Positions 2,972 through 20,561 of a stretch of 64,000 bases of DNA are shown piece by piece. Location of the stretch: positions 96,079-160,078 of the forward strand of contig CAYOCJ010000001.1 of NCBI GenBank assembly GCA_964402565.1, in the 5' to 3' direction. The position numbers and the translations under genes were made by a program. The notes under the pieces were generated by a model, which searched no databases, was not told where the DNA came from, and was given only the letters and a program-made list of their open reading frames with translations. Positions within the stretch are counted from its first letter, which is position 1. Each line of letters begins with the position of its first letter. This stretch comes from an uncultured Gammaproteobacteria bacterium. GTDB taxonomy: Bacteria; Patescibacteriota; Patescibacteriia; UBA1558; 2-01-FULL-52-15.

Positions 2972-3919
2972 ATGATTTTTCCTATTGAGAAAACATGTGA
3001 GTTTGTAACACCGAAGCATCCGGACAAAATGTGCGACTTTATTTCTGATTCGATCCTGGACGCTTTTCTAAGCGTCGATCACAAGAGCCGTGTGGCTATA
3101 GAAACGTTGGGCGGGCATGGCAGGATAGTGATTTGCGGCGAGGTGACCAGCAATGGCGTAGTGAATATTCAGGATGTGGTTCGTGGCATCGTCGGCGATA
3201 ATTTTATCATAGAGGTATACGTTACAGAGCAAAGTCCTGAGATAGCTGCCGGTGTAGATACCGGGGGCGCAGGAGATCAAGGTATTATGGCAGGTTATGC
3301 AACAGCGGAGACAAAGAGCTTATTACCATATGAGTATGAGCTGGCCCGAACTTTATGCCAGAAAATATATGAGCATTACCCCTATGATGGTAAGGTGCAG
3401 GTAACCGCTCGGGATGGAAATGTAGCGACGGTTGTTGCGAGCTTTCAAAATACACATACATCAGAACTTACTTCACTCGTAAAACAGTATATAGAAGCCC
3501 AGGAGTATCTGATCAATCCTGCAGGTGAATGGCAGCTTGGCGGTTTTGATGCAGATGCCGGGCTTACGGGAAGAAAAATAATTATCGATAACTATGGCCC
3601 GCAGATTCCTGTCGGTGGAGGAGCGTTCTCTGGCAAAGACTACACTAAGGTGGATCGCAGCGCAGCGTATATGGCGCGCTATATAGCAACAGAGTATCTG
3701 AAAAAAACAGGCGCCCAGGAAGCGAATGTGAAAATCGCCTACGCAATCGGAAAAGCTGAACCCGTGATGGCCACCGTCATTCTCGATGGAAGAGTGGAGC
3801 GCATTAACGGGTTTGATTTACGTCCAAGGTCCATTGCCGCGTTGCTTGATTTGGCACAGCCGAGGTATGCCAAGACCAGTCAGTGGGGGCACTTTGGTTT
3901 AAGCTTTCCCTGGCGATAA
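2972..3919 (+). CDS. metK: S-adenosylmethionine synthetase (compact form, 315 aa)
   Basis: N-terminal PKHPDKMCDFISDSILDA matches the GHPDKxxDxISDAxLDA motif. GAGDQGIMAGYA, LTGRKIIIDNYG and GGGAFSGKDYTKVDRSAAYMARY are MetK signatures. It is shorter than the ~384-aa E. coli enzyme through loop deletions. Confidence 0.8.
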   Translation: MIFPIEKTCEFVTPKHPDKMCDFISDSILDAFLSVDHKSRVAIETLGGHGRIVICGEVTSNGVVNIQDVVRGIVGDNFIIEVYVTEQSPEIAAGVDTGGAGDQGIMAGYATAETKSLLPYEYELARTLCQKIYEHYPYDGKVQVTARDGNVATVVASFQNTHTSELTSLVKQYIEAQEYLINPAGEWQLGGFDADAGLTGRKIIIDNYGPQIPVGGGAFSGKDYTKVDRSAAYMARYIATEYLKKTGAQEANVKIAYAIGKAEPVMATVILDGRVERINGFDLRPRSIAALLDLAQPRYAKTSQWGHFGLSFPWR

Positions 3920-7828: not shown

Positions 7829-9643
7829 ATGAACGTGCATGAGTTTGCCCGGTTGATCAGAAGCGGCCAGAGAACGACAAGCCAGATCAGCGGCCTATGC
7901 GGCAGGCTGATTCGCGGCAAAAAGCCCGAAGATTTCCTCACGCTGACCGATGATGCCGATCGCAAGATCGTGATGCTCATCGGCCCCGACGGGCTCCAGA
8001 AGATGCCCGGAAAAAACGGCTGGGATATGCTGATGGAAATCGGCTACGAACCCGATTACGCGAAGCACAAGATCGAAGAGGGCTGCCAGTTCAAGCTCGT
8101 GGTGTTCCCGGAAGGTGGACCCGCGAAGCTCGCGACCTGGGACAATGTCCTCGATGAGGTTGTCAGAATTTACCCTGACACTTTCGCTGCGGCGAGCGGC
8201 TACACTTCGGTACTGAAAGAAGAGTCGTTCGCAGTAATCGAGTCTCATGCCGGCTACAGCTTCCTCGAAGTGGAGAAGGCCGGTAAGAACGACCCGCGCT
8301 TCATGACCTACGAACGTTTCCAGCGGTCGAAGATGACATTGGTTGACTTCAGAGCATTCCTGTACTTCAGCGTGCATCTCCGTGAGCTCTTTCGCGGCGA
8401 CGGATACACCGACGCCCAAGGCAAGCGGGGGCCGATGGAATACATCGTCCCCAATCGCCCCCTCGCCGAACTTGGCGAGCTCGAGCTCATCGACATTCCA
8501 GTTTCCATCCCTTCCGCAACCGTCCCCACAGGAGGTTCGAAGATGAAGACGAAACAACTGCCGGTCCCGAGCTTCTATAACCCCGCGAACTCACGCAAGT
8601 GGAGTTACCAGCCTGATCAGGCTGCGCTCTTCCTCGCTGCCGACGCGTATCGCAAGCAGCATGACGTGAAGCCCAAGTCGACGTCCGGTTTCAAGACGCA
8701 CTTGCTGATCATCGACGCGCAACGCGACTTCTGTTTTCCGGAAGGATCGCTGTATGTCGGAGGCCGCAGCGGTACCGGCGCCATGGACGACAGCGATCGC
8801 CTCGCGCAGTTCATCTACCGCGAGGCAGGAACCATCACGGACATCACGACGACGCTGGACACGCACTTCGCGTATCAGATCTTCCAGCCCTGGTTCTGGG
8901 TCAACTCGAACGGGGCGCCGCTCTCCGCGCACACCTTGGTGGTGCTGTCATCGGACGAGCGGAAGCTCAACAATATCGGACTCGATGGCTCGCTCCTGAA
9001 CGAAGACGTGCGTCCGAATCCGGCGATCGCCGAGTGGCTCTGCAACGGCAACTACGGATGGCTCCTGAAGCAGTGCATGTTCTACTGCAAGAAGCTCGCG
9101 GAAGGCGGCAAGTACGTCCTGTACCTCTGGCCTCCGCATTGCATTCTCGGTTCGGAAGGCCATGCGCTCGCCGGTGTCATTCACGAAGCGCGCATGTTCT
9201 TCTCCTTCATCCGCGGCTCCCAGTCCTACTGCGAGGTCAAGGGTACCAATGCCTTGACCGAGAACTATTCGGTCCTGAGCCCCGAGGTGACGGAGCGGTT
9301 CGACGGCAACTCGCTGGATTCCCGCAATACCGATTTCATCAGAACGCTTCTCGAAGCTGATCGCGTCATCATCGCGGGTCAGGCATCGAGCCACTGCGTG
9401 AAGAGCTCGATCGGCGACTTGCTTTTGGACATCCTGAAGCAGGACCCGACGCTCGCGAAGAAGGTGTATATCCTGAAGGATTGCACCTCCGCGGTCGTCG
9501 TCCCGGACGGCAAGGGCGGTTTCGCTGTCGATTTCACAGCCGATGCGGACAAGGCCATGGCCGAGTTCGCCGCTGCTGGTATGAATCTCGTCGACAGTAC
9601 CGCTCCGATCGAGTCCTGGCCCACCGCGGCTGTCACGGCTTAG
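7829..9643 (+). CDS. two-domain protein: unknown N-terminal ~270 aa plus a C-terminal isochorismatase-family cysteine hydrolase (nicotinamidase-like)
   Basis: The C-terminal half has HLLIIDAQRDF (Asp), LDTHF and RVIIAGQASSHCVKSS (nucleophilic Cys), the Asp/Lys/Cys isochorismatase/PncA pattern. A hairpin follows at 9649..9686. Confidence 0.5.
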   Translation: MNVHEFARLIRSGQRTTSQISGLCGRLIRGKKPEDFLTLTDDADRKIVMLIGPDGLQKMPGKNGWDMLMEIGYEPDYAKHKIEEGCQFKLVVFPEGGPAKLATWDNVLDEVVRIYPDTFAAASGYTSVLKEESFAVIESHAGYSFLEVEKAGKNDPRFMTYERFQRSKMTLVDFRAFLYFSVHLRELFRGDGYTDAQGKRGPMEYIVPNRPLAELGELELIDIPVSIPSATVPTGGSKMKTKQLPVPSFYNPANSRKWSYQPDQAALFLAADAYRKQHDVKPKSTSGFKTHLLIIDAQRDFCFPEGSLYVGGRSGTGAMDDSDRLAQFIYREAGTITDITTTLDTHFAYQIFQPWFWVNSNGAPLSAHTLVVLSSDERKLNNIGLDGSLLNEDVRPNPAIAEWLCNGNYGWLLKQCMFYCKKLAEGGKYVLYLWPPHCILGSEGHALAGVIHEARMFFSFIRGSQSYCEVKGTNALTENYSVLSPEVTERFDGNSLDSRNTDFIRTLLEADRVIIAGQASSHCVKSSIGDLLLDILKQDPTLAKKVYILKDCTSAVVVPDGKGGFAVDFTADADKAMAEFAAAGMNLVDSTAPIESWPTAAVTA

Positions 9644-9648
9644 TCCGC

Positions 9649-9686
9649 GTGGCGCGGTGCAGTGCTTACGCGCAGCACCGCGCCAC
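9649..9686 (+). terminator. 12-bp perfect hairpin GTGGCGCGGTGC/GCACCGCGCCAC
   Basis: The inverted repeat was read directly. It is followed by ttaaccgactcatttctttt. Confidence 0.4.
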
Positions 9687-9736
9687 TTAACCGACTCATT
9701 TCTTTTAACGATCGCAACAGATAGAGGGAAAAGACG

Positions 9737-10531
9737 ATGAGCCAAAGTACCGCGAATCCGAAAGATCTCTTCGCTCAGGCAGCAGCCGACGGCATTCTGT
9801 CGCCGGCAGCGTCCCAGGTGATCACGGTCGCGAATGCCGGGACCCGCATCAAGGCGGCCCTCGGCATCAGCGTCGATGACGTGAAGGCAAGCGAGGTCTT
9901 GCTCGTCACGATCATGGTCGACGATTCCGGATCGATCCGCATGGCTGCGGGGAATACCGAAGCTGTTCGCGAAGGACACAATGGGGTCCTGGACGCACTC
10001 GGCGCTTCCAAACAGACGGATTCGATCCTGGTCTGCACCCGGCTTCTGAACGGTGAAGTGATCTGTCCGTACGCGCCGCTTTCAAGCGCCGTGCGTCTGG
10101 ACACTCACAACTACAACCCCGACAAAGGCACGCCTCTCTACGATGAGACGGTCGTGCTTCTGGGAACCGTCCTCGCCAAGGCTCAGGAATTCGTCAACAA
10201 CGGCGTCACAGTCCGTACAGCGACCCTGAACATCACCGACGGTTCCGATCAGCACAGCCGCAAACACGAAGCCGCCGACGTCGCCAAGATAGTCGCTGAC
10301 ATGCTTCGCGAAGAGACCCACATCATTGCCGGCATGGGTATCGACGACGGCTACACGGACTTCAGGAGCATCTTCTCCCAGATGGGCATCCGCGACGAGT
10401 GGATCCTCACGCCGAAGAAGACGCCTTCCGAGATCCGCAAGGCCTTCGCGGTCTTCTCGCAGAGTGCCGTGCGCGCCAGCCAGAGTGCTGCGCAGTTCAG
10501 CACGGTGAGCGTCGGAGGCTTCGGCGGTTAA
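9737..10531 (+). CDS. von Willebrand factor A (vWA) domain protein, TerY-like
   Basis: LLVTIMVDDSGSI carries the MIDAS DxSxS motif. A downstream T and NITDGSD fit the rest of the vWA pattern. Confidence 0.55.
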   Translation: MSQSTANPKDLFAQAAADGILSPAASQVITVANAGTRIKAALGISVDDVKASEVLLVTIMVDDSGSIRMAAGNTEAVREGHNGVLDALGASKQTDSILVCTRLLNGEVICPYAPLSSAVRLDTHNYNPDKGTPLYDETVVLLGTVLAKAQEFVNNGVTVRTATLNITDGSDQHSRKHEAADVAKIVADMLREETHIIAGMGIDDGYTDFRSIFSQMGIRDEWILTPKKTPSEIRKAFAVFSQSAVRASQSAAQFSTVSVGGFGG

Positions 10532-10560
10532 GCAGTTCTTTCAGTAAGTAACCACACTTG

Positions 10561-10606
10561 GGGAGAGGAGTATCCAAAAAACGGATGCTTCTCTCCCTCC
10601 TTTCTC
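10561..10606 (+). terminator. intrinsic terminator
   Basis: GGGAGAGGAG-17 nt-CTTCTCTCCC forms a 10-bp stem with one G:U pair, followed by tcctttctc. Confidence 0.5.
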
Positions 10607-10723
10607 AATAGAGATTTGCATCGAATATATTCGTTGCAGTTCTTTCTTCCCGAGAGACGAACGTTTTTCGGGAAGTGAACATTGAAAATGTTAGTGGAAA
10701 AACTTCGAAAAAAGGAGACCATC

Positions 10724-12109
10724 ATGAAAGAGATCATCAGGGTATTTGGAGGCGGCTTTAACCCTCCAGGTATTCATCATGTGGAAATCGCCCGTGCAGT
10801 ATCAGCGTTGACTCCGCGTGGCACGACCTATGTCATTCCATGCGGACCTCGTCCTGACAAGCAGACGGTGAACGACGTCGATCCTCTTTTCAGAGCAACC
10901 ATGAACGACATGGCCTTTCGAGGCATGCCGAACGTGGTCGTGGACCTTTTTGACCTCGAGCGAAACGTGTTTACGAGAACGCATGAGATCGAACGGCGCT
11001 ATGCTTCGCTGGGCGAAGTATGGCATGTCATCGGTTCCGACTGGTTTGTCGGCGGTGCAAGCAAGTCTTCGCGGATCCAGAAAGATTGGCGACATGGCGC
11101 AGAACTCTGGGATCGGCTGAATTTTCTGGTCGTTTCCCGAAGGGGATACGAGATAGCTCCTGCCGACCTTCCGCCGCACCATAAGCTGGTGACGATCGAT
11201 ACCGGGGTTGCATCGAGCTCGGACATCAGGCTGAAGGCTTTTCAGCGCGAGTCCATTCAGAGCTTGGTGCCTGACGGCGTGTTTCAGTACGTCGAGCGCT
11301 ACGGCCTGTATCGAGGCCGCGCACCGTCACATGCGACCACGCTCGTACTTCCTGAGATGCGGCCTCTGCTGGTATCCGACGCGGATAATCCCCGAGCGCA
11401 GATACTGGCTTCTCAATTCGCCTCTTTCAGCGAACATGAAGCAAACTGCATCGTCGTTGTCGGCGGCGACGGCATGATGCTGCGCGCAGTGAAGGAACAC
11501 TGGCGCAAGCGTTTGCCGTTCGTTGGCGTGAATGCCGGACACCGCGGTTTTCTTCTGAATGAACCATTCGCCAGCGCAAGCGTTTCCGAGTTCAAGATCT
11601 ACCATCTTCCGCTGCTGTCGGTGACCGTAACGTCAGTCGATGGAAGCGTACACAAGCACCTAGCGTTCAATGACGCATGGGTCGAGCGCTCGTCACCGCA
11701 AACAGCCTGGCTGTCCGTAACGGTGGATGGTGTTACTCGAATCGGAAAACTCATGGCAGATGGCGCACTCGTCGCGACCGCATCCGGCTCCACAGCCTAT
11801 GCTCGTGCGATGGGAGCAACGCCTCTTTCGATCGAATCGCCGAACATCGTTCTCGTCGGCAACAACGTGCTCGAGCCCTATGGCTGGAAGGCGGTTCAGC
11901 ATTCGCTGAACTCCGTCATCACGCTGACCTCGCTTGATCCGGTGAAGCGCCCGATCAGGGCCTGTGTCGACGGCTTTTCGATCGAACATGCGGTCGAAAT
12001 GACGATCGCGAAAAGCCACGTGGCTTCGGCGGAACTCGCATTCACCAACAATCGAGACATGGCCTCCAAGATCGCCGAACTTCAGTATCCCGGAGGGAAC
12101 TCGATATGA
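10724..12109 (+). CDS. bifunctional nicotinate/nicotinamide-nucleotide adenylyltransferase (NadD/NMNAT) fused to NAD kinase
   Basis: The N-terminal domain has FGGGFNPPGIHHVEIA (HxGH) and SSSDIRLK (the ISSTxIR motif). The C-terminal domain has IVVVGGDGMMLRA (GGDG), NDAWVER and DGALVATASGSTAYARAMGATP (NAD kinase signatures). aaggag sits 6 nt upstream of the ATG at 10724. The ORF track starts the frame at TTG 10682. Confidence 0.65.
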   Translation: MKEIIRVFGGGFNPPGIHHVEIARAVSALTPRGTTYVIPCGPRPDKQTVNDVDPLFRATMNDMAFRGMPNVVVDLFDLERNVFTRTHEIERRYASLGEVWHVIGSDWFVGGASKSSRIQKDWRHGAELWDRLNFLVVSRRGYEIAPADLPPHHKLVTIDTGVASSSDIRLKAFQRESIQSLVPDGVFQYVERYGLYRGRAPSHATTLVLPEMRPLLVSDADNPRAQILASQFASFSEHEANCIVVVGGDGMMLRAVKEHWRKRLPFVGVNAGHRGFLLNEPFASASVSEFKIYHLPLLSVTVTSVDGSVHKHLAFNDAWVERSSPQTAWLSVTVDGVTRIGKLMADGALVATASGSTAYARAMGATPLSIESPNIVLVGNNVLEPYGWKAVQHSLNSVITLTSLDPVKRPIRACVDGFSIEHAVEMTIAKSHVASAELAFTNNRDMASKIAELQYPGGNSI

Positions 12110-13179
12110 ATTCTCCAGAGCTTTTGTCTCGGATCAAAGGATGTCTCATGGGTGTTGCCATTGGCGACGCCATGGGGATGCCCTGGGAACTCATGACTCC
12201 TGAAGAGATCTCCGCGGCCACGAAGGGTAATGGGGTCAATGGTTTCGCTAACCCAGTTCAGCGCAAGATCAAAGGTACTGCTGCTCATCGGGCAGGCGAA
12301 ACAACCGATGATTGGCAGCTCACCGCTGCGATAACCCGTTCCCTCGTCATGTGCGGCAGCTTCGACACAATCTACGTTGCTCGCGAGCATGTGGTCGAAT
12401 TTGATCGCTGCCAGTTCGGCTGGGGCGGTACCACGAAAACGTCGCTCAGGAACATCAAGAAGTGGTTCGACAGCCGCGGACATGAAGGTCAAAATCCATG
12501 CCAGCCTGCTCCGGACCGAGGTCCGGGCAAAGGCTCTGGTAATGGGGTCGCGATGAAGGTCGCACCGCTTGGCCTCTTCTTCCAGCACGAGGAAGACGAT
12601 GCCATGGCTGAAGCCATTGCTGACCTGGGTCTCATGACGCATTCAGATCCCCGAGCCTGGATTACCGCGTATCTCGTCGCCCGCGTTATCGCAGATGCAT
12701 TGTACACCGGTTATGAGATCGGCCATCAGAAACAATGGGGCCTCGATGCACGGCAGCTTGTCGTCACTTTGATGACACGAGCTGCAGAATTCGAGGAGGT
12801 GACGCCATTTGGAGAAAATGGCGAAGTCGAGGGCAAGGTGACAGGCCGCTGTCTGCAGCTTGCAAGCCTCATTGATTCAAGCGAATTGTACGGCGACGCG
12901 GCGATCGCTCGCCGAACGTTCGGTACTGGCTGCTTCTGCATGGAGTCGGTTCCTTTCGCTCTCGCGACCTTCCTGAGGCATCCGACTGATTTCAAGACGG
13001 GCGTCCTGGAAGCAGTGAATGCCGGCGGTGACACTGATTCGACAGCCAGCATGGTCGGTGCCATGATTGGCGCTAATGTCGGCATCGAGGGCATACCGCC
13101 TGCATGGTGCAATTTCAATCCCAAGTTCCAGGAAGCGATCGACCTGAGCCAGCAGCTTTTCGAAGTAGTTACCCGCTAA
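12106..13179 (+). CDS. ADP-ribosylglycohydrolase family protein
   Basis: The N-terminus CLMGVAIGDAMGMPWE matches the ARH/DraG GxAxGDAxGxPxE motif. The start overlaps the upstream stop as ATGA. Confidence 0.6.
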   Translation: MNSPELLSRIKGCLMGVAIGDAMGMPWELMTPEEISAATKGNGVNGFANPVQRKIKGTAAHRAGETTDDWQLTAAITRSLVMCGSFDTIYVAREHVVEFDRCQFGWGGTTKTSLRNIKKWFDSRGHEGQNPCQPAPDRGPGKGSGNGVAMKVAPLGLFFQHEEDDAMAEAIADLGLMTHSDPRAWITAYLVARVIADALYTGYEIGHQKQWGLDARQLVVTLMTRAAEFEEVTPFGENGEVEGKVTGRCLQLASLIDSSELYGDAAIARRTFGTGCFCMESVPFALATFLRHPTDFKTGVLEAVNAGGDTDSTASMVGAMIGANVGIEGIPPAWCNFNPKFQEAIDLSQQLFEVVTR

Positions 13180-13194
13180 CACAACCCTAACCGG

Positions 13195-13228
13195 AGGAGC
13201 ATTCTAGAAAACTAGAGTGCTCCTCCCG
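13195..13228. terminator. 15-bp hairpin GGAGGAGCATTCTAG-aaaa-CTAGAGTGCTCCTCC
   Basis: Inverted repeat with one G:U pair and no clear T-tract. It may act as a terminator or an RNA-stability element. Confidence 0.35.
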
Positions 13229-13318
13229 AAAGAATATTTGCTGAATACTTTGGCACATGTTCTTTCGCCTATGAATGACGAAAACGTTCATCACAATTAA
13301 CAATAGAGAAAAAGGAGA

Positions 13319-13879
13319 ATGCAGATGAAGCGCGAAACGCTCCATAAGGGTTTTTTGACCGTCGAAAAGATCACCTACGACGGCGGAATCACCAGGGAGA
13401 TCATTCGGGCAAGCAATTCTGTGAACCTTTTGATCTTCGACCGGTCCAATGACGAAGTGATCCTGGTGCAGCAGCGTCGGGAGCCTATGCTCAGTGTACA
13501 CAATCCGACCGGCATGATCATCGAAACCGTCGCAGGACGGTTCGATGTGAATCTCGGCGCGCAGCAGCTCGCGGCAAAAGAGGCTTTCGAAGAGGCCGGC
13601 ATCGAGATCGACCCTTGGGACATCGAGCTCCTGAATAATGGTAAGCCGATGGCTCTTTCTGCGGGCGTTCTCACCGAGTGTGCGTACCTGTGTTTCGTGG
13701 AAATTGACGAGAGCAATAAGCGTCAGTCGGGAAATTTTTTCGGAACGGACCCGGGCGAGCACACCGAACCTGTGCGTATCCCGGTCGTGGCACTCGACAG
13801 AATCGATTTCCAGGATGTTCGCGTCTTCGCACTGGTGCAGTACCTGTTGCGGAAGCTCGAGCAAGAGCAGCGGGGGTAA
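13319..13879 (+). CDS. Nudix hydrolase, probable ADP-ribose pyrophosphatase
   Basis: ETVAGRFDVNLGAQQLAAKEAFEEAGIE fits the Nudix box GX5EX7REUXEEXGU. Confidence 0.6.
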   Translation: MQMKRETLHKGFLTVEKITYDGGITREIIRASNSVNLLIFDRSNDEVILVQQRREPMLSVHNPTGMIIETVAGRFDVNLGAQQLAAKEAFEEAGIEIDPWDIELLNNGKPMALSAGVLTECAYLCFVEIDESNKRQSGNFFGTDPGEHTEPVRIPVVALDRIDFQDVRVFALVQYLLRKLEQEQRG

Positions 13880-13880
13880 A

Positions 13881-15125
13881 ATGCCAACACCGATCATCGA
13901 ATCCCTCATGGACGTGGACTTCTACAAGTTCACTATGGGTTTGGTTGCCTTCAAGAAATATCGGGACGTGCCGGTCCGGTATCGCTTCAAGAATCGGACA
14001 ACGATTGCCGATGCTTCGATGGCAGAAGTCGTTCCTGAGGCACGGCTTCGCGAAGAGCTTGACCACGTCCGAACGCTGCGCTTCACGAATACGGACCTTC
14101 ACTACCTTCGCGGCACCAACGAATACGGCGACCGCATGTTCCCTGAAGACTACCTGCTGTTCCTGAAAGACTTTCAGCTGCCTCCCTATGAGCTCGTGTG
14201 GACTGAAGAACGAAAGGAGCTTGAGTTTTTCGGAGCATGGCCTGAAGCCATGCACTGGGAGACTATTGCCCTTTCGATCATCAACGAGCTGTACTTTAGC
14301 TATGTTTGTTCGGAAGGCAGTCAATTCCGTCGAGATCTGTATCGTGCTGAAGCGATAGGCAGACTCGCTGACAAGATCATGGTCTTGCGCGATCGTCCGG
14401 ATATCACGATAAGCGACTTCGGTACTCGCCGCCGGCTCAGCCGAAGCTGGCAGGAATACGCAGTCGCGTCGTTGGTGGCGGAACTTCCGCCTGGGCAGTT
14501 GCTTGGCACTTCGAATGTGAAGCTTGCCATGGACCTGGGGCTGCTGCCCATGGGTACTTCAGCCCATGAGATGCCCATGGTGCTGTACAGCATCCATCAC
14601 GATACGGATGAAGGAATCCTGAGTGTCCAGCAGCGGGTGCTTCACGATTGGTGGGATACGTACGGTGCAGGTCTTTCGATCGCGCTTCCGGACACATTCG
14701 GAAGCGAGTACTTCTTCCGGACTATGACTGCAGAGCAGGCAGCAGCATGGAAAGGTTTGCGCCAGGACTCCGGTGACCCGATCGTTTTCGGCGAACGCGC
14801 GATTCGGTTCTACGAGTCGCATGGGGTTGATCCGACCGAGAAGCTCATCGTCTTCAGCGATGGTTTGGATGTCCACACCATGCTGAAGATTGCTGACCAT
14901 TTCAAAGGCCGCATCAAGTGCACCTTCGGCTGGGGCACGAACCTGACCAACGACACAAGTATTCCGGCACTTTCGATGGTCATCAAGGTCGTCGAAGCCA
15001 ACGGTCGGCCTTCGATCAAGCTTTCGGATAACCTGGCGAAGGCAAGCGGCGACCCGGCTGAGGTCGAACGAGCCAAACGCGTGTTCGGCTATACCAACAC
15101 GCTGTCACAGGAATGCATCTACTGA
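13881..15125 (+). CDS. pncB: nicotinate phosphoribosyltransferase family protein
   Basis: The N-terminus MPTPIIESLMDVDFYKFTMGL carries the DxYKxTM motif. Length is ~415 aa. The ATG at 13881 falls 1 nt after the upstream stop. The longer track ORF from 13638 is a false 5' extension. Confidence 0.7.
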   Translation: MPTPIIESLMDVDFYKFTMGLVAFKKYRDVPVRYRFKNRTTIADASMAEVVPEARLREELDHVRTLRFTNTDLHYLRGTNEYGDRMFPEDYLLFLKDFQLPPYELVWTEERKELEFFGAWPEAMHWETIALSIINELYFSYVCSEGSQFRRDLYRAEAIGRLADKIMVLRDRPDITISDFGTRRRLSRSWQEYAVASLVAELPPGQLLGTSNVKLAMDLGLLPMGTSAHEMPMVLYSIHHDTDEGILSVQQRVLHDWWDTYGAGLSIALPDTFGSEYFFRTMTAEQAAAWKGLRQDSGDPIVFGERAIRFYESHGVDPTEKLIVFSDGLDVHTMLKIADHFKGRIKCTFGWGTNLTNDTSIPALSMVIKVVEANGRPSIKLSDNLAKASGDPAEVERAKRVFGYTNTLSQECIY

Positions 15126-15136
15126 TTTTTTCTCTC

Positions 15137-15214
15137 GCGGTGGAGGTTTGGACCACAAGTCCCCTCCACCGCTCCTTCTTCGAAAAACTGACTCCGTTGG
15201 TTCTTCGAAGAAGG
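15137..15214 (+). terminator. tandem hairpins after pncB
   Basis: GCGGTGGAGG-16 nt-CCTCCACCGC at 15137..15172 and CCTTCTTCGAA-19 nt-TTCGAAGAAGG at 15174..15214 are both perfect inverted repeats. Confidence 0.45.
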
Positions 15215-15277
15215 AATTGTTCTTTCACATTTCAACAGGAATATAAAACCATCGCAGTATTGCGACGGGGGTGATCT

Positions 15278-16246
15278 ATGCGTCGACATCCGGTTGTGTT
15301 CGCCTGTCCGCAAATGCATCCGATATGGACCGGCATGGCTGTTTCATCAGTCGGAGGTCCGTGCAGCGGAGGTAAGATCCGCTGGGATTCGTTCAACGAC
15401 GGTTGGCCGAACATCAAGATCGATGACACGAGCGTGGTCGAAGGACATGACATCGTTTTTCTCGCGTCATTCGCCAAGCCAGGGGACATTTTCGAGCAAT
15501 GCGGCATTCTGTATGCATTGCCCAGCTATGGCGCTCGGTCGCTTACGGTCATTCTTCCTTTCTTTTCGACCGGCACCATGGATCGTGTCGATCAGGACGG
15601 TGAAATTGCCACAGCAAAAACTCTGGCGCGGATGCTTTCTCAGATTCCGCATTGCCACGGTTCAGGGCCGGCGCAAATCATCATTCTCGATATCCATGCC
15701 CTGCAGGAGCAGTTCTACTTCAGCGACAATGTGCGCGTGAAGCTCATCAGCGCCATGCCGGCGATCCGCGATGCCATCGTTCACAAGCTCGGGCGCGACG
15801 TCAGGATCGCCTTTCCCGACGAAGGAGCGCGGAAGCGTTTCAAGAAATTCTTCGAAGGATTCGAACTCATCACGTGCGACAAGCGGCGCGAAGGCGACAA
15901 GCGCATCGTCACTATCAAAGACGGCGACCCTTCTGGTAAGAACGTTGTCATCGTTGACGATCTGATCATGAGCGGCGGAACAGCTATAGAGTGCGCTGCT
16001 GTTCTGCGTGCCGCAGGAGCATCTACGGTTAGTCTGGCTGCCACACATGCGGTTATGCCAGGGGATGCCCTGTACCGTATGAAGCAGTCGCCTCTCGATC
16101 ACATCTGGGTGACAGATTCATGTCCGCGGATTGCAGAGAATATTACTGTACTCACCGATCAAAAGATCGCACACCCGTTCACGATGATTCCTTTGAGCCA
16201 TCAGTTCAAGCGAGTCGTCTACGACGTCAGTGTGCGCAATCTCTAA
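15278..16246 (+). CDS. ribose-phosphate pyrophosphokinase family protein (PRPP synthetase-like)
   Basis: NVVIVDDLIMSGGTAIECAAVLRAAG is the PRPP-binding loop. The N-terminus is atypical for canonical Prs. Confidence 0.6.
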   Translation: MRRHPVVFACPQMHPIWTGMAVSSVGGPCSGGKIRWDSFNDGWPNIKIDDTSVVEGHDIVFLASFAKPGDIFEQCGILYALPSYGARSLTVILPFFSTGTMDRVDQDGEIATAKTLARMLSQIPHCHGSGPAQIIILDIHALQEQFYFSDNVRVKLISAMPAIRDAIVHKLGRDVRIAFPDEGARKRFKKFFEGFELITCDKRREGDKRIVTIKDGDPSGKNVVIVDDLIMSGGTAIECAAVLRAAGASTVSLAATHAVMPGDALYRMKQSPLDHIWVTDSCPRIAENITVLTDQKIAHPFTMIPLSHQFKRVVYDVSVRNL

Positions 16247-16259
16247 GGAAGGAGGAACT

Positions 16260-18287
16260 ATGACGAAAGCAGAACAGCGAAAGAAATTCCTCGACATTCG
16301 CGAACACAACTTCGCGCGCGTCGCAGTCGTGATTCCACGCGTGTACCTGTCTGATCCTGTACGCAATGCACAGGAGCACATCAGGCTGCTCGAAGCAGCA
16401 TACAATGCGGGCTGCGTGTACGCGGTGTGCCCTGAGCTGGGACTTACCGGCTATTCGAACGGCGACTTGTTCTTCAGCGATGCGCTGCTCGATGAGTCGA
16501 TGCAAAGTCTTCGGACCATCATGGAATGGACGAAGGGCAAGAACCTGCTTGTGTCTGTCGGGATGCCTTTGCGAGTCGGTGACGCACTCGCGAATGTAGC
16601 CGTAACCATTCGTTACGGTGTTCCGGCTGCGATCGCACCGAAATCCTACTTGCCGAATTACCGCGAATTTTACGAGGGGAGGCATTTCGCTCCGGCTCGT
16701 GATCTGCAGCTGATAAGCATGAAGTTCCTCGGCCACGATGTTCCGATCGGAAACAACATTCTGATCGATCTTGGCCGCGACCTGACCATCTTCACTGAAG
16801 TATGCGAGGATGGATGGGTACCGATTCCACCGAGCTCTCTGGCTGCGCTTGCAGGCGCGACGATCATCGCGAATTTGTCTGCGTCGAACATCACGATCGG
16901 CAAGGCTGCATATAGGCGAGATCTTTTCGTCGGAGCTTCCGGAAGGAATGTAGCTGCGCAGCTTTACTGTGCTGCCGGCTATGGCGAATCGTCGACCGAT
17001 CTCGCGTGGGATGGCGACGGATTCATCGCAGAACGCGGCGAACTCATGGCCGAAGTGAAGCGTTTCGAACGCGAGGGATCGTATATCATCCATGATGTCG
17101 ACCTGACGATGCTGCGGAATGACCGCATGCGCCAGACCTCGTTCTGGCAAAATGCGACCGACAACCGTCGCAATTTCATTCGAGTCATGGTCGATGAGGA
17201 AAGCGCGCTCAGCAGTTTCGGCAAGCCAATCGCTGACTACAGCACGCTCAAACGCTCGATAGCGCCGTTTCCGTTCGTACCTCAGAACGCTGCTTCGCGC
17301 GACGAGCGATGCCGTGAAACCTTCATGATCCAGGCTACGGCTCTTGCCCGCCGGCTCGAACAGATGCCGGATGCACAGCGGAAGGTCGTGATCGGGATCT
17401 CCGGAGGTCAGGACTCGACGCATGCTCTGCTCGTCGCAGTCCACGCGATGGATCTGCTGGGTCTGCCCAGAACCAAAGTCACGGGCATCACCATGCCGGG
17501 GTTCGGGACGACGAAGCGGACCAGAAACAATGCGGTTCAGCTGATGAAGGCGCTCGGCATCGTCCAAAAGCGCAAGTCGATCAACCGCATTGCCAACAGC
17601 TTCTTTTTTTCCGCCGAATACAACCCGAACGTTCATGGTACCGATCTTCTCGAGTTCGAGAACGCCCAGGCGTGGGCACGCATGCAGGTGCTCCTGAATT
17701 ACAGCTGCCGTCACGGCGGCATCGTGGTCGGCACCGGCGATCTCTCGGAGCTTGCACTCGGCTGGTGTACGTTCGGCGGCGACCATTTCAGCCACTACGG
17801 AGTGAATGGCGGAGTGCCGAAGACCTTGATCTCCTTTTTGATCGGTTGGGCTGCCGATAAGATCTTTTCGGACGAACCGGAAGCCCAGAAGGTCCTGAAG
17901 GACATTCTGGCGACGCCGATTTCGCCAGAGCTCAAGAAAGCTGCGGCAGACGGGACGATCGCTCAGCAGACCGAGTCGGTGATCGGACCGTATGCCTTGC
18001 ATGACTTCACGATTTACTACCTGATCCGCTTTGGTTTCCTGCCATCGCGCATAGCGAGGCTGCAGTATCACGCGTTTCGCGGTACGTACACGATGGCAGA
18101 GATCAAGAAGTGGATGCGTCTTTTCCTGAAGCGATTCTTCCAGACGCAGTTCAAGCGCTCGTGCCTCCCGGACGGACCGAAGGTCGGCCTGGTATGTATC
18201 TCGCCTCGGGGCGATTGGCGCATGCCGTCCGATGCGAATCCCGAAGCTTGGCTTCGGGATCTGGACACTGTTCCTGATGAGATCTGA
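16260..18287 (+). CDS. nadE: glutamine-dependent NAD+ synthetase (N-terminal CN-hydrolase domain plus C-terminal NAD synthetase)
   Basis: [11 protein letters not shown] is the PP-loop SGGxDS motif in the C-terminal domain. The N-terminal ~270 aa is nitrilase-like with [10 protein letters not shown]. aaggagga sits upstream of the ATG at 16260. Confidence 0.75.
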
Positions 18288-18313
18288 CGAGGAGTGACAC
18301 CTCGCAAAACCCA

Positions 18314-18356
18314 GGGTCCCCTGATAAGCGAAAGCTTTGACGGGGACCTTTTTTCT
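18314..18356 (+). terminator. intrinsic terminator after nadE
   Basis: GGGTCCCC-20 nt-GGGGACC followed by TTTTTTCTTC. Confidence 0.55.
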
Positions 18357-18439
18357 TCATTTGCATTTTTCTACGTCACACGTTAGGGTTGGAACGTAGA
18401 AGTTTTTTTTCAAACGTTCATTCAAAAGGGGTGGAGACA

Positions 18440-19579
18440 ATGTACGCAGCGCATGGCTTGATGAAACATGTATCGGATATCCCAACAATCGTGCTCACAG
18501 GGGGACCCTGTAGCGGCAAAACAACGGTTCTCGCCCACCTTATCAGCTGGCTTCGTGATCGCGGGTATCGGGTGTATGTCGTGCCTGAAACAGCCACACT
18601 CTTGATCAACGGGGGTTTCCCTGATCTGCCAAAGATCGCCGCAGAGAACTATCCGCGCTTTCTCGCCATTCAACGGCAGATCCTTTTCTTGCAGATGGCT
18701 TTTTTGAAAACCTTTCGCGAACTGTCGGACTCAGCGAACGGTGAATCGCAAGTCATCATCTGCGATCGCGGTCCCATGGATGGGCTTGCTTACGTCAAGG
18801 ATCGAAAAGATTTCAACTCTGTTCTAAAGTCGGTGCATCTCTCGAAGAAATCCGCGCTTGATTTCAAAGGGGTGATACACCTCGTTACAGCTGCGAATGG
18901 AGCCGAGGAGAGCTATACGCTCGAAAATAACACCGCACGTAGCGAGTCGGCTGAACAGGCGCGCATCCTGGACGACAAGACCCAGAAAGCATGGTGGGGG
19001 ACCGATCATCTCATAGTGATCGACGCATACCCGGATTTTGATCAGAAACTGCATCGCACGACTCAGGCGCTTGCGCGCATTCTGGGGATCCCGGTTCCGA
19101 TCGAGATCGAACGCAAGTACCTCGTTCAGTTGCCGATCGATTGGAGTCATCCGGTCCTGAAGGCGGCGGTTGCCTCAACGATCGAACAGCAATACGTATA
19201 TTTGTACGGCTCAGATGCCGTGGTGCGCATTCGTCGCCGCAAGCAGCAAGGTGGCTGGGTCTATACGCGGACGCGCAAGGAACGCCAGAGCGATCTTGTG
19301 AGAACGGAGATCGAAGCACGGATTACCCGTGAGGAGTACGACGCCTTGTCGGCATTTCGTGTACCGAACACGCGTATCATCCGTAAGCAGCGTCACTGCT
19401 TTGTTTGGGAGTCTCAGTATTTCGAGCTCGATGTTTTCGAGCAACCCTCAGGCAAAGCATTGCTCGAGAATGAGGCTACCGAAGAGAACGATCAAGTTAC
19501 CTTGCCGCCTTTTCTGAAGGTCTTAATGGAAGTTACCTCCGACCCCGCATACGAAAACCGAAACATGGCGAACTTGTAA
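18440..19579 (+). CDS. P-loop nucleoside kinase (NadR/ribosylnicotinamide-kinase-like) fused to a CYTH (triphosphate tunnel metalloenzyme) domain
   Basis: N-terminus VLTGGPCSGKTT is a Walker A, followed by YVVPETAT as in NadR-type RNK domains. The C-terminal ~180 aa starts IPVPIEIERKYLV, the ExExK signature of CYTH, with later YFELDVFE. Confidence 0.5.
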   Translation: MYAAHGLMKHVSDIPTIVLTGGPCSGKTTVLAHLISWLRDRGYRVYVVPETATLLINGGFPDLPKIAAENYPRFLAIQRQILFLQMAFLKTFRELSDSANGESQVIICDRGPMDGLAYVKDRKDFNSVLKSVHLSKKSALDFKGVIHLVTAANGAEESYTLENNTARSESAEQARILDDKTQKAWWGTDHLIVIDAYPDFDQKLHRTTQALARILGIPVPIEIERKYLVQLPIDWSHPVLKAAVASTIEQQYVYLYGSDAVVRIRRRKQQGGWVYTRTRKERQSDLVRTEIEARITREEYDALSAFRVPNTRIIRKQRHCFVWESQYFELDVFEQPSGKALLENEATEENDQVTLPPFLKVLMEVTSDPAYENRNMANL

Positions 19580-19597
19580 TACCGCCATAACCTAGCC

Positions 19598-19623
19598 GGG
19601 GCGAAGCGCTTGCGCTTCGCCCC
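19598..19623 (+). terminator. GC-rich hairpin GGGGCGAAGCGC/GCGCTTCGCCCC at the distal edge of the high-GC block
   Basis: Perfect 12-nt inverted repeat, followed by gcttcattt. Confidence 0.4.
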
Positions 19624-19668
19624 GCTTCATTTACCCTAGTCATAGAACTTCCTATCTGATATTCTGAT

Positions 19669-20166
19669 ATGCATATGGATTGGCATTTACTTTTCGGACA
19701 TAAGACAGTTGCCTTTTTCGACATCTGGACCATCGAACATATCGTGAGCGGCATTTCTTTCGGCTCGCTCGCTTTTTTGCATACGAGAAAGAAATTTTCG
19801 AATGTAGTCGCTCAGTTCGGCGCAAAGCTGGAGGAGCTTGCAGAAACGCATAAAGCAGTTCTCACTCGCTTCGATATCATTACTGTTCTGTTCATCGCTT
19901 ATTTTTGGGAGACGCTTGAGCATTATTTGGAGACTGGCTTGCTCGGCCCGAAAGTAATGTATTGGTTCCAGGGAGTTGAAGCATGGGACAATCGCTTCAT
20001 TTCAGATCCGCTCATGCTGCTGCTCGGTTATTGGATCGTGAAGCGCTGGCCAAAGCTGGTATGGCCGGCCCGCATTTTTTCATTTGTCTGGCTTTTTTTC
20101 CATATTTTCATCTTTCCGCATAGCATGTATCTCCAGGACAGTATCGCCCGCGCCTTCATGCATTGA
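19669..20166 (+). CDS. hypothetical integral membrane protein
   Basis: 165-aa ORF with several hydrophobic segments. No recognised motif. Confidence 0.35.
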   Translation: MHMDWHLLFGHKTVAFFDIWTIEHIVSGISFGSLAFLHTRKKFSNVVAQFGAKLEELAETHKAVLTRFDIITVLFIAYFWETLEHYLETGLLGPKVMYWFQGVEAWDNRFISDPLMLLLGYWIVKRWPKLVWPARIFSFVWLFFHIFIFPHSMYLQDSIARAFMH

Positions 20167-20240: not shown

Positions 20241-20561
20241 GTGCGGATGACGCCTGCGCTGGCGGTTGCCAATGTCGTGAATGTGAGCTTCGAGCCCGGT
20301 TACTTCGCAAAAGTGATTGCGGCTCTCTGCAACCTCGTTCCCGCTGACCGCTGGATGCGCCACGAACCGGTCACACCGGAAGAGATCCAGTTCATGCTGA
20401 GCTGCGGACAGACCAACTTCGCCGAAGTTCGCGGCAGGTTCATCAGCGTCAGAGTGAACGACGGTGTCCTCGACGTGTCCGATTTCGCGCGCATCCACGG
20501 CATGAAAAATCTCGACGACGCCCTGGCGGACGTCGCGGGTTGTCCGAACATCCGGGTCTGA
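20241..20561 (+). CDS. hypothetical protein (high-GC ORF)
   Basis: 106-aa ORF. The overlapping 188-aa antisense ORF has junk-like composition rich in R, H and C. Confidence 0.3.
   Translation: MRMTPALAVANVVNVSFEPGYFAKVIAALCNLVPADRWMRHEPVTPEEIQFMLSCGQTNFAEVRGRFISVRVNDGVLDVSDFARIHGMKNLDDALADVAGCPNIRV

Follow-up and report, generated by a model that had tools for sequence, protein, structure and literature searches.

A predicted AAA_28 kinase fused to a NeuTTM-like triphosphate tunnel domain: a typical member of an uncharacterised prokaryotic family, found beside NAD genes in a Patescibacteria contig

Proteins with a CYTH / triphosphate tunnel metalloenzyme (TTM) domain are known as single-domain enzymes and as fusions. 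NeuTTM (NE1496) is a specific inorganic triphosphatase for which a catalytic dyad of Tyr-28 and Lys-52 has been proposed, and CthTTM has high inorganic triphosphatase (PPPase) activity as well (PMC3440374). Neither has cyclase activity, which has been shown for two bacterial CYTH proteins only (PMC3440374). Both consist of a single domain of about 150 aa. Fusions of CYTH with HD domains and with exopolyphosphatases have also been reported (PMC8233210). In Arabidopsis TTM1 and TTM2 (pdb entry 7Z67) an N-terminal P-loop small-molecule kinase, similar to uridine/cytidine kinases, is followed by a TTM tunnel that lacks the metal-binding glutamates and is inactive; the combination of kinase and TTM has been called unique to plants (PMC9582702). 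A second point of reference is the ribosylnicotinamide kinase (RNK) domain of NadR (E. coli, H. influenzae, L. lactis, and the phage NARP3 NadR-like enzymes). It belongs to Pfam family AAA_28, and its fold is described as thymidylate-kinase-like (PMC7221760). This report concerns a bacterial gene, located at 18440..19579 (+) of the window, that has the domain order of the plant proteins, a kinase domain of the Pfam family to which the NadR RNK belongs and a tunnel of the NeuTTM type. The window is the whole stretch of DNA that was analysed: 64,000 nucleotides of contig CAYOCJ010000001.1 (positions 96,079 to 160,078, assembly GCA_964402565.1), deposited as an uncultured Gammaproteobacteria bacterium and placed by GTDB in the Patescibacteriota.

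The gene encodes a protein of 379 aa, stop codon included in the coordinates; it was taken from the list of open reading frames (ORFs) and its translation was checked. The protein is typical of a known but uncharacterised family with AAA_28-CYTH architecture. The reading that we favour, tentatively and as something close to an even call, is that of a bifunctional protein in which a kinase of the nucleoside/nucleotide type, not specific for the metabolism of nicotinamide adenine dinucleotide (NAD), is joined to a NeuTTM-type triphosphatase, both halves being predicted to be catalytically competent.

The tunnel domain comprises residues 219-379 (19094..19576, +). The Pfam CYTH model scores marginally above its cut-off (23.5 versus 23.2 bits) and is matched in its first half only. 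A family profile made from 35 homologues aligns end to end with NeuTTM (pdb entries 2FBL/3TYP) with an E-value of 1e-16. NeuTTM is 31% identical over the whole protein in BLASTP and ranks first in a Foldseek search with the AlphaFold2 (AF2) model. In that model, residue 220 is followed by eight long strands, one short strand (361-364) and a C-terminal helix. The low Pfam score is thus no sign of a weak or partial tunnel domain.

Conservation was assessed in an alignment of 262 homologues, of which 150 stand for clusters at 50% identity. The ExExK motif is EIERK (E222, E224, K226; residues 222-226, 19103..19117, +), with E222 and E224 conserved in 97% and 98%, respectively; including the following Tyr, EIERKY spans residues 222-227 (19103-19120). 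Two acidic strands, YFELDVFE with E329 and D331 (residues 327-334, 19418-19441) and LLENEAT with E343 and E345, lie within 19418..19480 (+) and align with FELDVF and LVEVEF of NeuTTM. D331 is conserved in 100%, E343 in 99% and E345 in 98%. The NeuTTM motifs QxY, RxR, TxK, ExE and KxR correspond to Y252, R263/R265, K280, E290/E292 and K316/R318, the motifs ExD and ExE to E329/D331 and E343/E345, and the terminal helix EVTxDxxYxN is shared. All eleven tunnel residues (R263, R265, K280, E290, E292, K316, R318, E329, D331, E343, E345) are present and 95-100% conserved, with R263 at 99%, R265, K316 and R318 at 100% and K280 at 97%. In the hidden Markov model (HMM) alignment, Y252 (99%) and K280 align with the QGY and TLK of NeuTTM, whereas BLASTP shifts K280 by one position. 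The pair Y252-K280 would be the counterpart of the Tyr-28/Lys-52 dyad. A first-pass annotation of this DNA had let the CYTH domain begin at EIERKY and end at YFELDVFE. The start stands; the domain continues through LLENEAT and a plug helix to residue 379.

CYTH proteins also include the cyclases CyaB and YpAC-IV, and a signalling role had been raised by the first-pass annotation. This favours a role in signalling in which the C-terminal domain would be a class IV nucleotide cyclase, possibly acting on a nucleotide made by the kinase. Such a role is hardly to be expected. The family profile matches a PPPase, NeuTTM, at 1e-16, and the only other CYTH-fold PDB chain that it finds is 2dc4, an unnamed archaeal protein and no cyclase, at an E-value of 0.05. 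The Tyr/Lys dyad of NeuTTM is conserved. Cyclase activity has been demonstrated for just two bacterial CYTH proteins, and NeuTTM and CthTTM lack it (PMC3440374). Furthermore, the neighbour surveys described below revealed no linkage to effector or receptor genes, and matches to PADLOC defence models are of P-loop length only, all with E-values of at least 1.6e-4. NeuTTM-like triphosphatase chemistry is the preferred assignment for the tunnel.

The P-loop kinase domain comprises residues 15-215 (18482..19084, +). The Pfam search assigns residues 17-197 to AAA_28 with 65.9 bits against a cut-off of 27 (E-value 6.4e-18, model positions 2-158 of 164). Other kinase families stay below their cut-offs in Pfam and NCBIfam (Thymidylate_kin 19.6 versus 27 bits, DTMP_kinase 23.3 versus 83 bits), and NCBIfam gives no match above cut-off for the 379-aa protein. 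The first-pass annotation had proposed a P-loop kinase fused to a CYTH domain. This architecture is confirmed: AAA_28 is the sole kinase family above cut-off, CYTH passes, if marginally, and the NeuTTM profile match and the AF2 model agree with it. It had also pointed to kinase-CYTH fusions in the literature, and PMC8233210 indeed cites the founding paper of the superfamily for fusions of CYTH with nucleotidyl kinases. The architecture is not new.

The motifs that the annotation had read from the translation are all present at the expected places, and the kinase half carries two of them. The Walker A motif GGPCSGKTT (K27, T28; residues 21-29, 18500..18526, +) has the family form GGPCxGKT, with K27 conserved in 99% and the Cys kept in 92%. 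VPETAT (residues 48-53, 18581..18598, +) follows strand 2. Its E50 is conserved in 100%, aligns with the Glu of EYGR in NadR, and is a candidate for the catalytic base or an acceptor ligand. At the end of strand 3, DRG (D109, R110; 18764..18772, +) occupies the Walker B or DR(Y) position and aligns with the DT motif of NadR; D109 is conserved in 98% and R110 in 100%. A lid-like segment, HLVTAANGAEESYTLENNTARSE (18878..18946, +), includes R167 (100%), N164 (97%) and E169 (97%) and aligns with the NadR region PWVDDGxR. The layout of P-loop Lys, Glu after strand 2, Asp-Arg after strand 3 and lid Arg is typical of nucleoside/nucleotide kinases. Presumably, the Glu of VPETAT corresponds to that of the PE(P) motif of deoxynucleoside kinases (dNK), and we take the PE and DR motifs to resemble PEP/ERS of dNK and DRY of thymidylate kinase (TMK). 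The lid NNxARxE differs from the Arg-rich lid of dNK.

The AF2 model of the 379-aa protein has a pLDDT of 89.7 and a pTM of 0.78. Its N-domain shows a Rossmann-like alternation of β-strands and α-helices. In Foldseek, thymidylate kinases and deoxycytidine kinase (dCK) are the first N-domain matches with target-normalised TM-scores of ~0.7; the sequence scores on Thymidylate_kin and DTMP_kinase are below the curated cut-offs. Among viral models, deoxynucleoside and dTMP kinases rank first, and the first protein named NadR/Ttd14 (AAA_28) appears at rank 36. In the PDB, the P-loop chains that the family profile matches best, at about 1e-3, belong to an archaeal adenylate kinase and to thymidylate kinases. 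On the modelled fold, the N-domain appears no more distant from thymidylate and deoxynucleoside kinases than from NadR.

The first-pass annotation had called the kinase NadR- or RNK-type. The family assignment holds, since AAA_28 also matches the RNK domain of E. coli NadR, with 106.7 bits, and the two hence share a Pfam family. The narrower label is not supported. A NadR-RNK alignment was made from ten sequences, E. coli NadR and nine phage NadR-like RNK domains. Against this alignment, hhalign gives a probability of 72% and an E-value of 3.4e-5 over 166 columns with 17% identity. Against E. coli NadR alone, hhalign aligned 25 P-loop columns and nothing further. No NadR chain is found among the PDB matches of the family profile at E-values up to 1, and the Foldseek top 50 of the AF2 model include no NadR. 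Within the ten-sequence set, residues E33, R36, W122, D125 and R128 show little or no variation. The NadR motifs EYGR and PWVDDGxR to which they belong are not present in the AAA_28-CYTH family, which has VPExAT, DRG (DRGxMD) and NNxARxE instead. Only the Glu after strand 2 and one Arg, in the lid, can be aligned between the NadR set and the family motifs; hhalign additionally pairs the P-loop and the Walker-B Asp. The 379-aa protein contains no NMN adenylyltransferase domain according to the protein domain search, in contrast to NadR, shows no sign of a PnuC partner in the ORF directly downstream, and is extended by a CYTH domain that has no counterpart in E. coli NadR. It matches none of 723 phage records carrying NadR RNK domain matches. 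Foldseek is compatible with kinship to NadR because the NadR RNK fold is itself thymidylate-kinase-like, but the modelled structure would lend no support to specificity for nicotinamide riboside (NR). We conclude that the kinase half is a distinct AAA_28 subfamily and a remote relative of the NadR RNK.

The genomic position of the gene bears on a more specific function. The N-domain could be a ribosylnicotinamide or nicotinate riboside kinase that feeds nicotinamide or nicotinate mononucleotide (NMN/NaMN) to the adjacent NAD pathway, with the CYTH domain acting on a triphosphate or by-product related to pyridine nucleotides. Besides the shared Pfam family, with the 379-aa protein above cut-off, and the hhalign alignment of the whole kinase domain, this function is favoured by the upstream genes. 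On the same strand there are a 604-aa ORF, a 264-aa ORF with no assignment, a fusion of NMN/NaMN adenylyltransferase (NMNAT) and NAD kinase (NADK) that lies 6 kb from the AAA_28-CYTH gene and was seen in the window only, an ADP-ribosylglycohydrolase (ARH), a NUDIX protein, nicotinate phosphoribosyltransferase (NAPRTase), a divergent Prs-like protein and a glutamine-dependent NadE, followed by the AAA_28-CYTH gene. The GC content at third codon positions (GC3) is 0.62-0.78 in the genes of the NAD block and 0.46-0.53 in the flanking genes. The AAA_28-CYTH gene, with 0.62, may belong to the acquired block because of its similar composition.

Several observations stand against this function. The island encodes a complete nicotinate salvage route, for which an RNK is not needed. 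The gene adjoins the NAD cluster, as the annotation had stated, but a terminator-like hairpin followed by T6 parts it from NadE (18313..18356, +; -21.3 kcal/mol, z -2.9). The NadE stop is at 18287. The hairpin has a GAAA-capped inner stem followed by UUUUUU, and a simple terminator scan missed it because of an internal loop. Downstream, 18 nt after the stop codon of the AAA_28-CYTH gene, the terminator scan detected a GC-rich hairpin of 12 pairs (19597..19624, +; -26.5 kcal/mol, z -4.6) with a weak T-tail. With hairpins on both sides, the gene looks monocistronic. Directly downstream is a 165-aa ORF (19669-20166, +) whose several hydrophobic stretches make a membrane protein probable. Neither Pfam nor NCBIfam matches it, hence there is no PnuC-type sign in these databases, the rest of the window not having been screened for one, and no homologue of this ORF was found beside other family members. 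Together with the 17% identity to NadR RNK, the replaced EYGR and PWVDDGxR motifs, the absence of NadR from the profile-PDB matches and the Foldseek top 50, the viral rank 36 and the 723 phage records without a match, this makes a dedicated role in NAD synthesis unlikely.

The gene contexts of homologues point in the same direction. Eighty genome loci, 80 metagenome loci and the contigs of close homologues, 164 loci in total, were surveyed by tblastn with the proteins of the NAD island. In the 80 genome loci, tblastn found no homologue of the NAD genes of the window beside the AAA_28-CYTH gene. Among all 164 loci, those of two close homologues count in favour of the NAD function: in L085, NAPRTase, Prs and a NadE fragment precede the gene at 2-4 kb, and in L082 an isochorismatase precedes it at 0.9 kb. 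Three further loci have single weak hits to NAD proteins at 2-4 kb. L085 is not independent evidence: its gene order is shared with the window, so both represent one inherited arrangement. Four more contexts annotated with Pfam, all from close homologues with 43-51% identity and two of them from records named Patescibacteria or Parcubacteria, are free of NAD genes, which brings NAD linkage in the Pfam-annotated contexts of close homologues to 2/8. Overall, of about 170 loci, one to three have NAD genes in the vicinity and about 160 lack the linkage. NAD linkage was therefore rejected as family-wide evidence, real linkage being confined to L085 and L082 among the 164 loci. The association is lineage-restricted and cannot carry a substrate prediction. 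A pyridine nucleoside or nucleotide substrate, which had been proposed from the neighbourhood, is thus not borne out; the gene looks like a transcription unit of its own, and the neighbouring NAD genes, a local accident in this lineage, say little about the substrate.

Clustering of the neighbours within 3 kb did not reveal a conserved partner either, so the survey of orthologous neighbourhoods that had been suggested as a check gives no general link to any pathway. Most often the neighbour is an AraC-type regulator (9 loci); next come the S component of an energy-coupling factor (ECF) transporter (8 loci) and, in 5 loci, a VTC-domain protein. Similarity of the S components to the FolT and RibU families is sub-threshold in NCBIfam, and no transport substrate can be deduced from it. 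In five Lachnospiraceae-type loci (L025, L029, L041, L058, L151) the homologue is directly followed by the VTC-domain protein and a large repetitive surface-like protein. The VTC domain is a CYTH domain of the polyphosphate-polymerase type. No riboswitch was found upstream of the AAA_28-CYTH gene in 48 homologue loci; lysine and cobalamin riboswitches lie downstream of homologues and belong to the next genes.

The family is large. A word-indexed search yielded 678 proteins of equal length and architecture, and an exhaustive profile search yielded 2,866 representatives of 50%-identity clusters at E-values up to 1e-30 and 9,490 at 1e-10. The length of the fusion is constant, about 365-375 aa, across the 2,866 clusters. 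Genome hits within the Patescibacteria, or candidate phyla radiation (CPR), come from Azambacteria, Saccharibacteria, Lloydbacteria and Niyogibacteria. Other carriers are a metagenome-assembled genome (MAG) of the Nanoarchaeia, a deltaproteobacterial MAG, many Lachnospiraceae, Oscillospiraceae, Clostridia and Bacilli, and Bacteroidales such as Prevotella and Segatella, with gut and rumen sources among the Firmicutes and Bacteroidales. The spread across phyla, which includes the Nanoarchaeia MAG, and the constant architecture fit a general metabolic role. No phage homologue was found by tblastn of the 379-aa protein against 50,697 phage records. JGI records label members as a CYTH domain with a predicted ATPase or thymidylate kinase, and the literature search found no paper on the AAA_28-CYTH family nor any assayed member.

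Two variants of the architecture were observed. Five members (P0112, P0114, P0119, P0128, P0247) carry an N-terminal XRE-type HTH_3 domain and have about 435-445 aa in total. They mirror enterobacterial NadR, which counts in favour of a role in NAD synthesis, and hint that some members double as ligand-responsive regulators. P0140 (866 aa) has the P-loop of its AAA_28 domain interrupted by an intein that carries a LAGLIDADG homing endonuclease, the AAA_28-CYTH protein being otherwise normal. Inteins are usually placed in indispensable catalytic sites.

For the favoured bifunctional protein the following scheme is proposed by analogy to the known enzymes. The P-loop domain would bind ATP-Mg through GGPCSGKTT, as its motifs and fold suggest, and would transfer the γ-phosphate to a small nucleoside- or nucleotide-like acceptor placed by E50, D109/R110 and the lid residue R167, whose roles may be those of the corresponding residues in dNK, TMK and NadR enzymes. 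In the tunnel, a triphosphate, most likely inorganic triphosphate (PPPi), would be held between R263, R265, K280, K316 and R318, as suggested by the conservation of the NeuTTM residues. Its terminal anhydride would be hydrolysed with metals bound to E222, E224, E329/D331 and E343/E345 in the two-metal mechanism of NeuTTM. Organisms that are auxotrophic and depend on salvage may use the protein to recover nucleosides, nucleotides or phospho-metabolites and, coupled to this, to dispose of inorganic triphosphate or of a triphosphorylated by-product.

Since the key residues of both sites are 95-100% conserved, kinase and tunnel are both under strong purifying selection for catalysis. The variable gene context is what is expected of a stand-alone housekeeping enzyme, and the intein at the P-loop of P0140 also counts for this reading. 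The adjacent ECF S components in 8 loci are compatible with salvage of an imported compound. Some points weigh against this assignment. The catalytic statements on both domains rest on homology throughout, and neither the neighbourhoods, the riboswitch search in 48 loci nor the PADLOC search provides a functional handle. The data do not account for the fusion of two activities. Moreover, the one solved kinase-TTM fusion, AtTTM1, has a catalytically dead, regulatory tunnel (PMC9582702), so cooperation of the domains instead of two independent reactions is possible.

One form of cooperation is that proposed for plant TTM1/2. The tunnel would sense a tri- or polyphosphate ligand and gate the kinase or, in the HTH-fused variants, DNA binding. 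The TTM domain of AtTTM1 occupies the acceptor site of the kinase and is thought to control it (PMC9582702). The pTM of 0.78 of the two-domain model suggests a defined interface, and HTH_3-AAA_28-CYTH variants exist. 7Z67 is a Foldseek match that spans both domains (rank 5). However, global superposition on 7z67 is poor (TM-score 0.26, r.m.s. deviation 20 Å), indicating a different packing of the domains, and the kinase is of another family, AAA_28 and not UCK/PRK. Furthermore, the ExExK glutamates of AtTTM1/2 are lost (Gln), whereas here the tunnel keeps its acidic and basic residues in 95-100% of the homologues, which indicates catalysis and not binding alone. The plant proteins are also tail-anchored to mitochondria; the 379-aa protein has no membrane segment and ends with the plug helix, with no hydrophobic tail. 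A regulated kinase of the plant kind is therefore doubtful, if the likeliest of the alternatives considered in this report.

In another form of cooperation the two sites would work on one reaction. PPPi or a short polyphosphate held in the tunnel would be the phosphoryl donor or the product of the kinase, similar to PPK2, or the pair would process a nucleoside and PPPi released by an NTP triphosphohydrolase. PPK2 is structurally akin to thymidylate kinase. The obligate fusion of constant length in thousands of lineages is in line with such chemistry, as are the VTC-domain genes immediately downstream in 5 loci and the reported CYTH-HD and CYTH-exopolyphosphatase fusions (PMC8233210). VTC linkage, on the other hand, is limited to 5 of about 135 loci with usable flanks, and no HD-domain partner is among the 25 most frequent families in a Pfam count made on 84 operon-like neighbours. 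To our knowledge, a PPPi-dependent AAA_28 kinase is without precedent. The idea is speculative and improbable, slightly more so than a dedicated role in NAD synthesis. Two predicted activities, kinase and PPPase, in one polypeptide are still preferred over both forms of cooperation.

The start of the gene and the remaining features of the window complete the description. The enclosing ORF (18389-19579, +) opens at TTG 18389. A Shine-Dalgarno-like sequence, GGGGTGGAG (18428..18436, +), was read directly from the sequence 3 nt before ATG 18440, and this start is preferred for that reason. The TTG start was ruled out, as homologues and the public gene call, like the Shine-Dalgarno-like sequence, point to the ATG. 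The identical 379-aa protein (P0001) is on public record for an NCBI assembly, on a contig of 633 kb.

The same-strand block 7829-19579 (+) and also 20247-20561 have raised GC3 and are probably an acquired island. Its enzymes suggest recycling of ADP-ribose via ribose-5-phosphate and phosphoribosyl pyrophosphate (PRPP) into NAD, or a NARP1-like route. The latter would consist of the Prs-like protein as Adps and the NAPRT-family transferase; identity of the island protein to phage Prs-like proteins is only 27-30%. The 604-aa ORF (7829-9643, +) may be a divergent nicotinamidase heading the island. Its sole family signal is isochorismatase-like (residues 500-556, E-value 1e-3, below cut-off). The ORF 10724-12109 (+) combines a cytidylyltransferase-like NMN/NaMN adenylyltransferase, with GGGFNPPGIHH in its N-terminal part, and an NAD kinase. 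This fusion supplies the NadD step that is apparently missing from the island. We know of no such fusion among characterised enzymes. A 614-aa antisense ORF (16227-18071, -) opposite NadE is in all likelihood no gene; the high GC3 of the sense gene would account for it. Elsewhere in the window, a tRNA-Ala(cgc) gene (2025-2098, +) lies just before an S-adenosylmethionine (SAM) riboswitch (2452-2569, +; 64.5 bits versus a cut-off of 44.4), which is upstream of ORF 2972-3919.

For annotation, the gene should not be labelled as a ribosylnicotinamide kinase nor counted in the NAD pathway. It represents a large family of at least 2,866 clusters, whose carriers include lineages that are reduced and depend on salvage (CPR and DPANN MAGs) as well as abundant bacteria of gut and rumen. 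The kinase-TTM combination is not restricted to plants, and the prokaryotic family qualifies the term unique. The fusions studied so far are only plant TTM1/2, with an inactive tunnel and a mechanism that is not settled. A soluble bacterial kinase-TTM protein with an intact NeuTTM-like tunnel, separate from the single-domain enzymes in being permanently fused behind a P-loop kinase, would offer an easy experimental entry to the purpose of this coupling. The same entry would serve the question, posed in PMC3440374, whether inorganic triphosphate is a real cellular metabolite. Should the two sites indeed work on one reaction, the phosphotransfer chemistry would be of a new kind, and inorganic triphosphate would have a defined place in the metabolism of CPR, DPANN and gut anaerobes.

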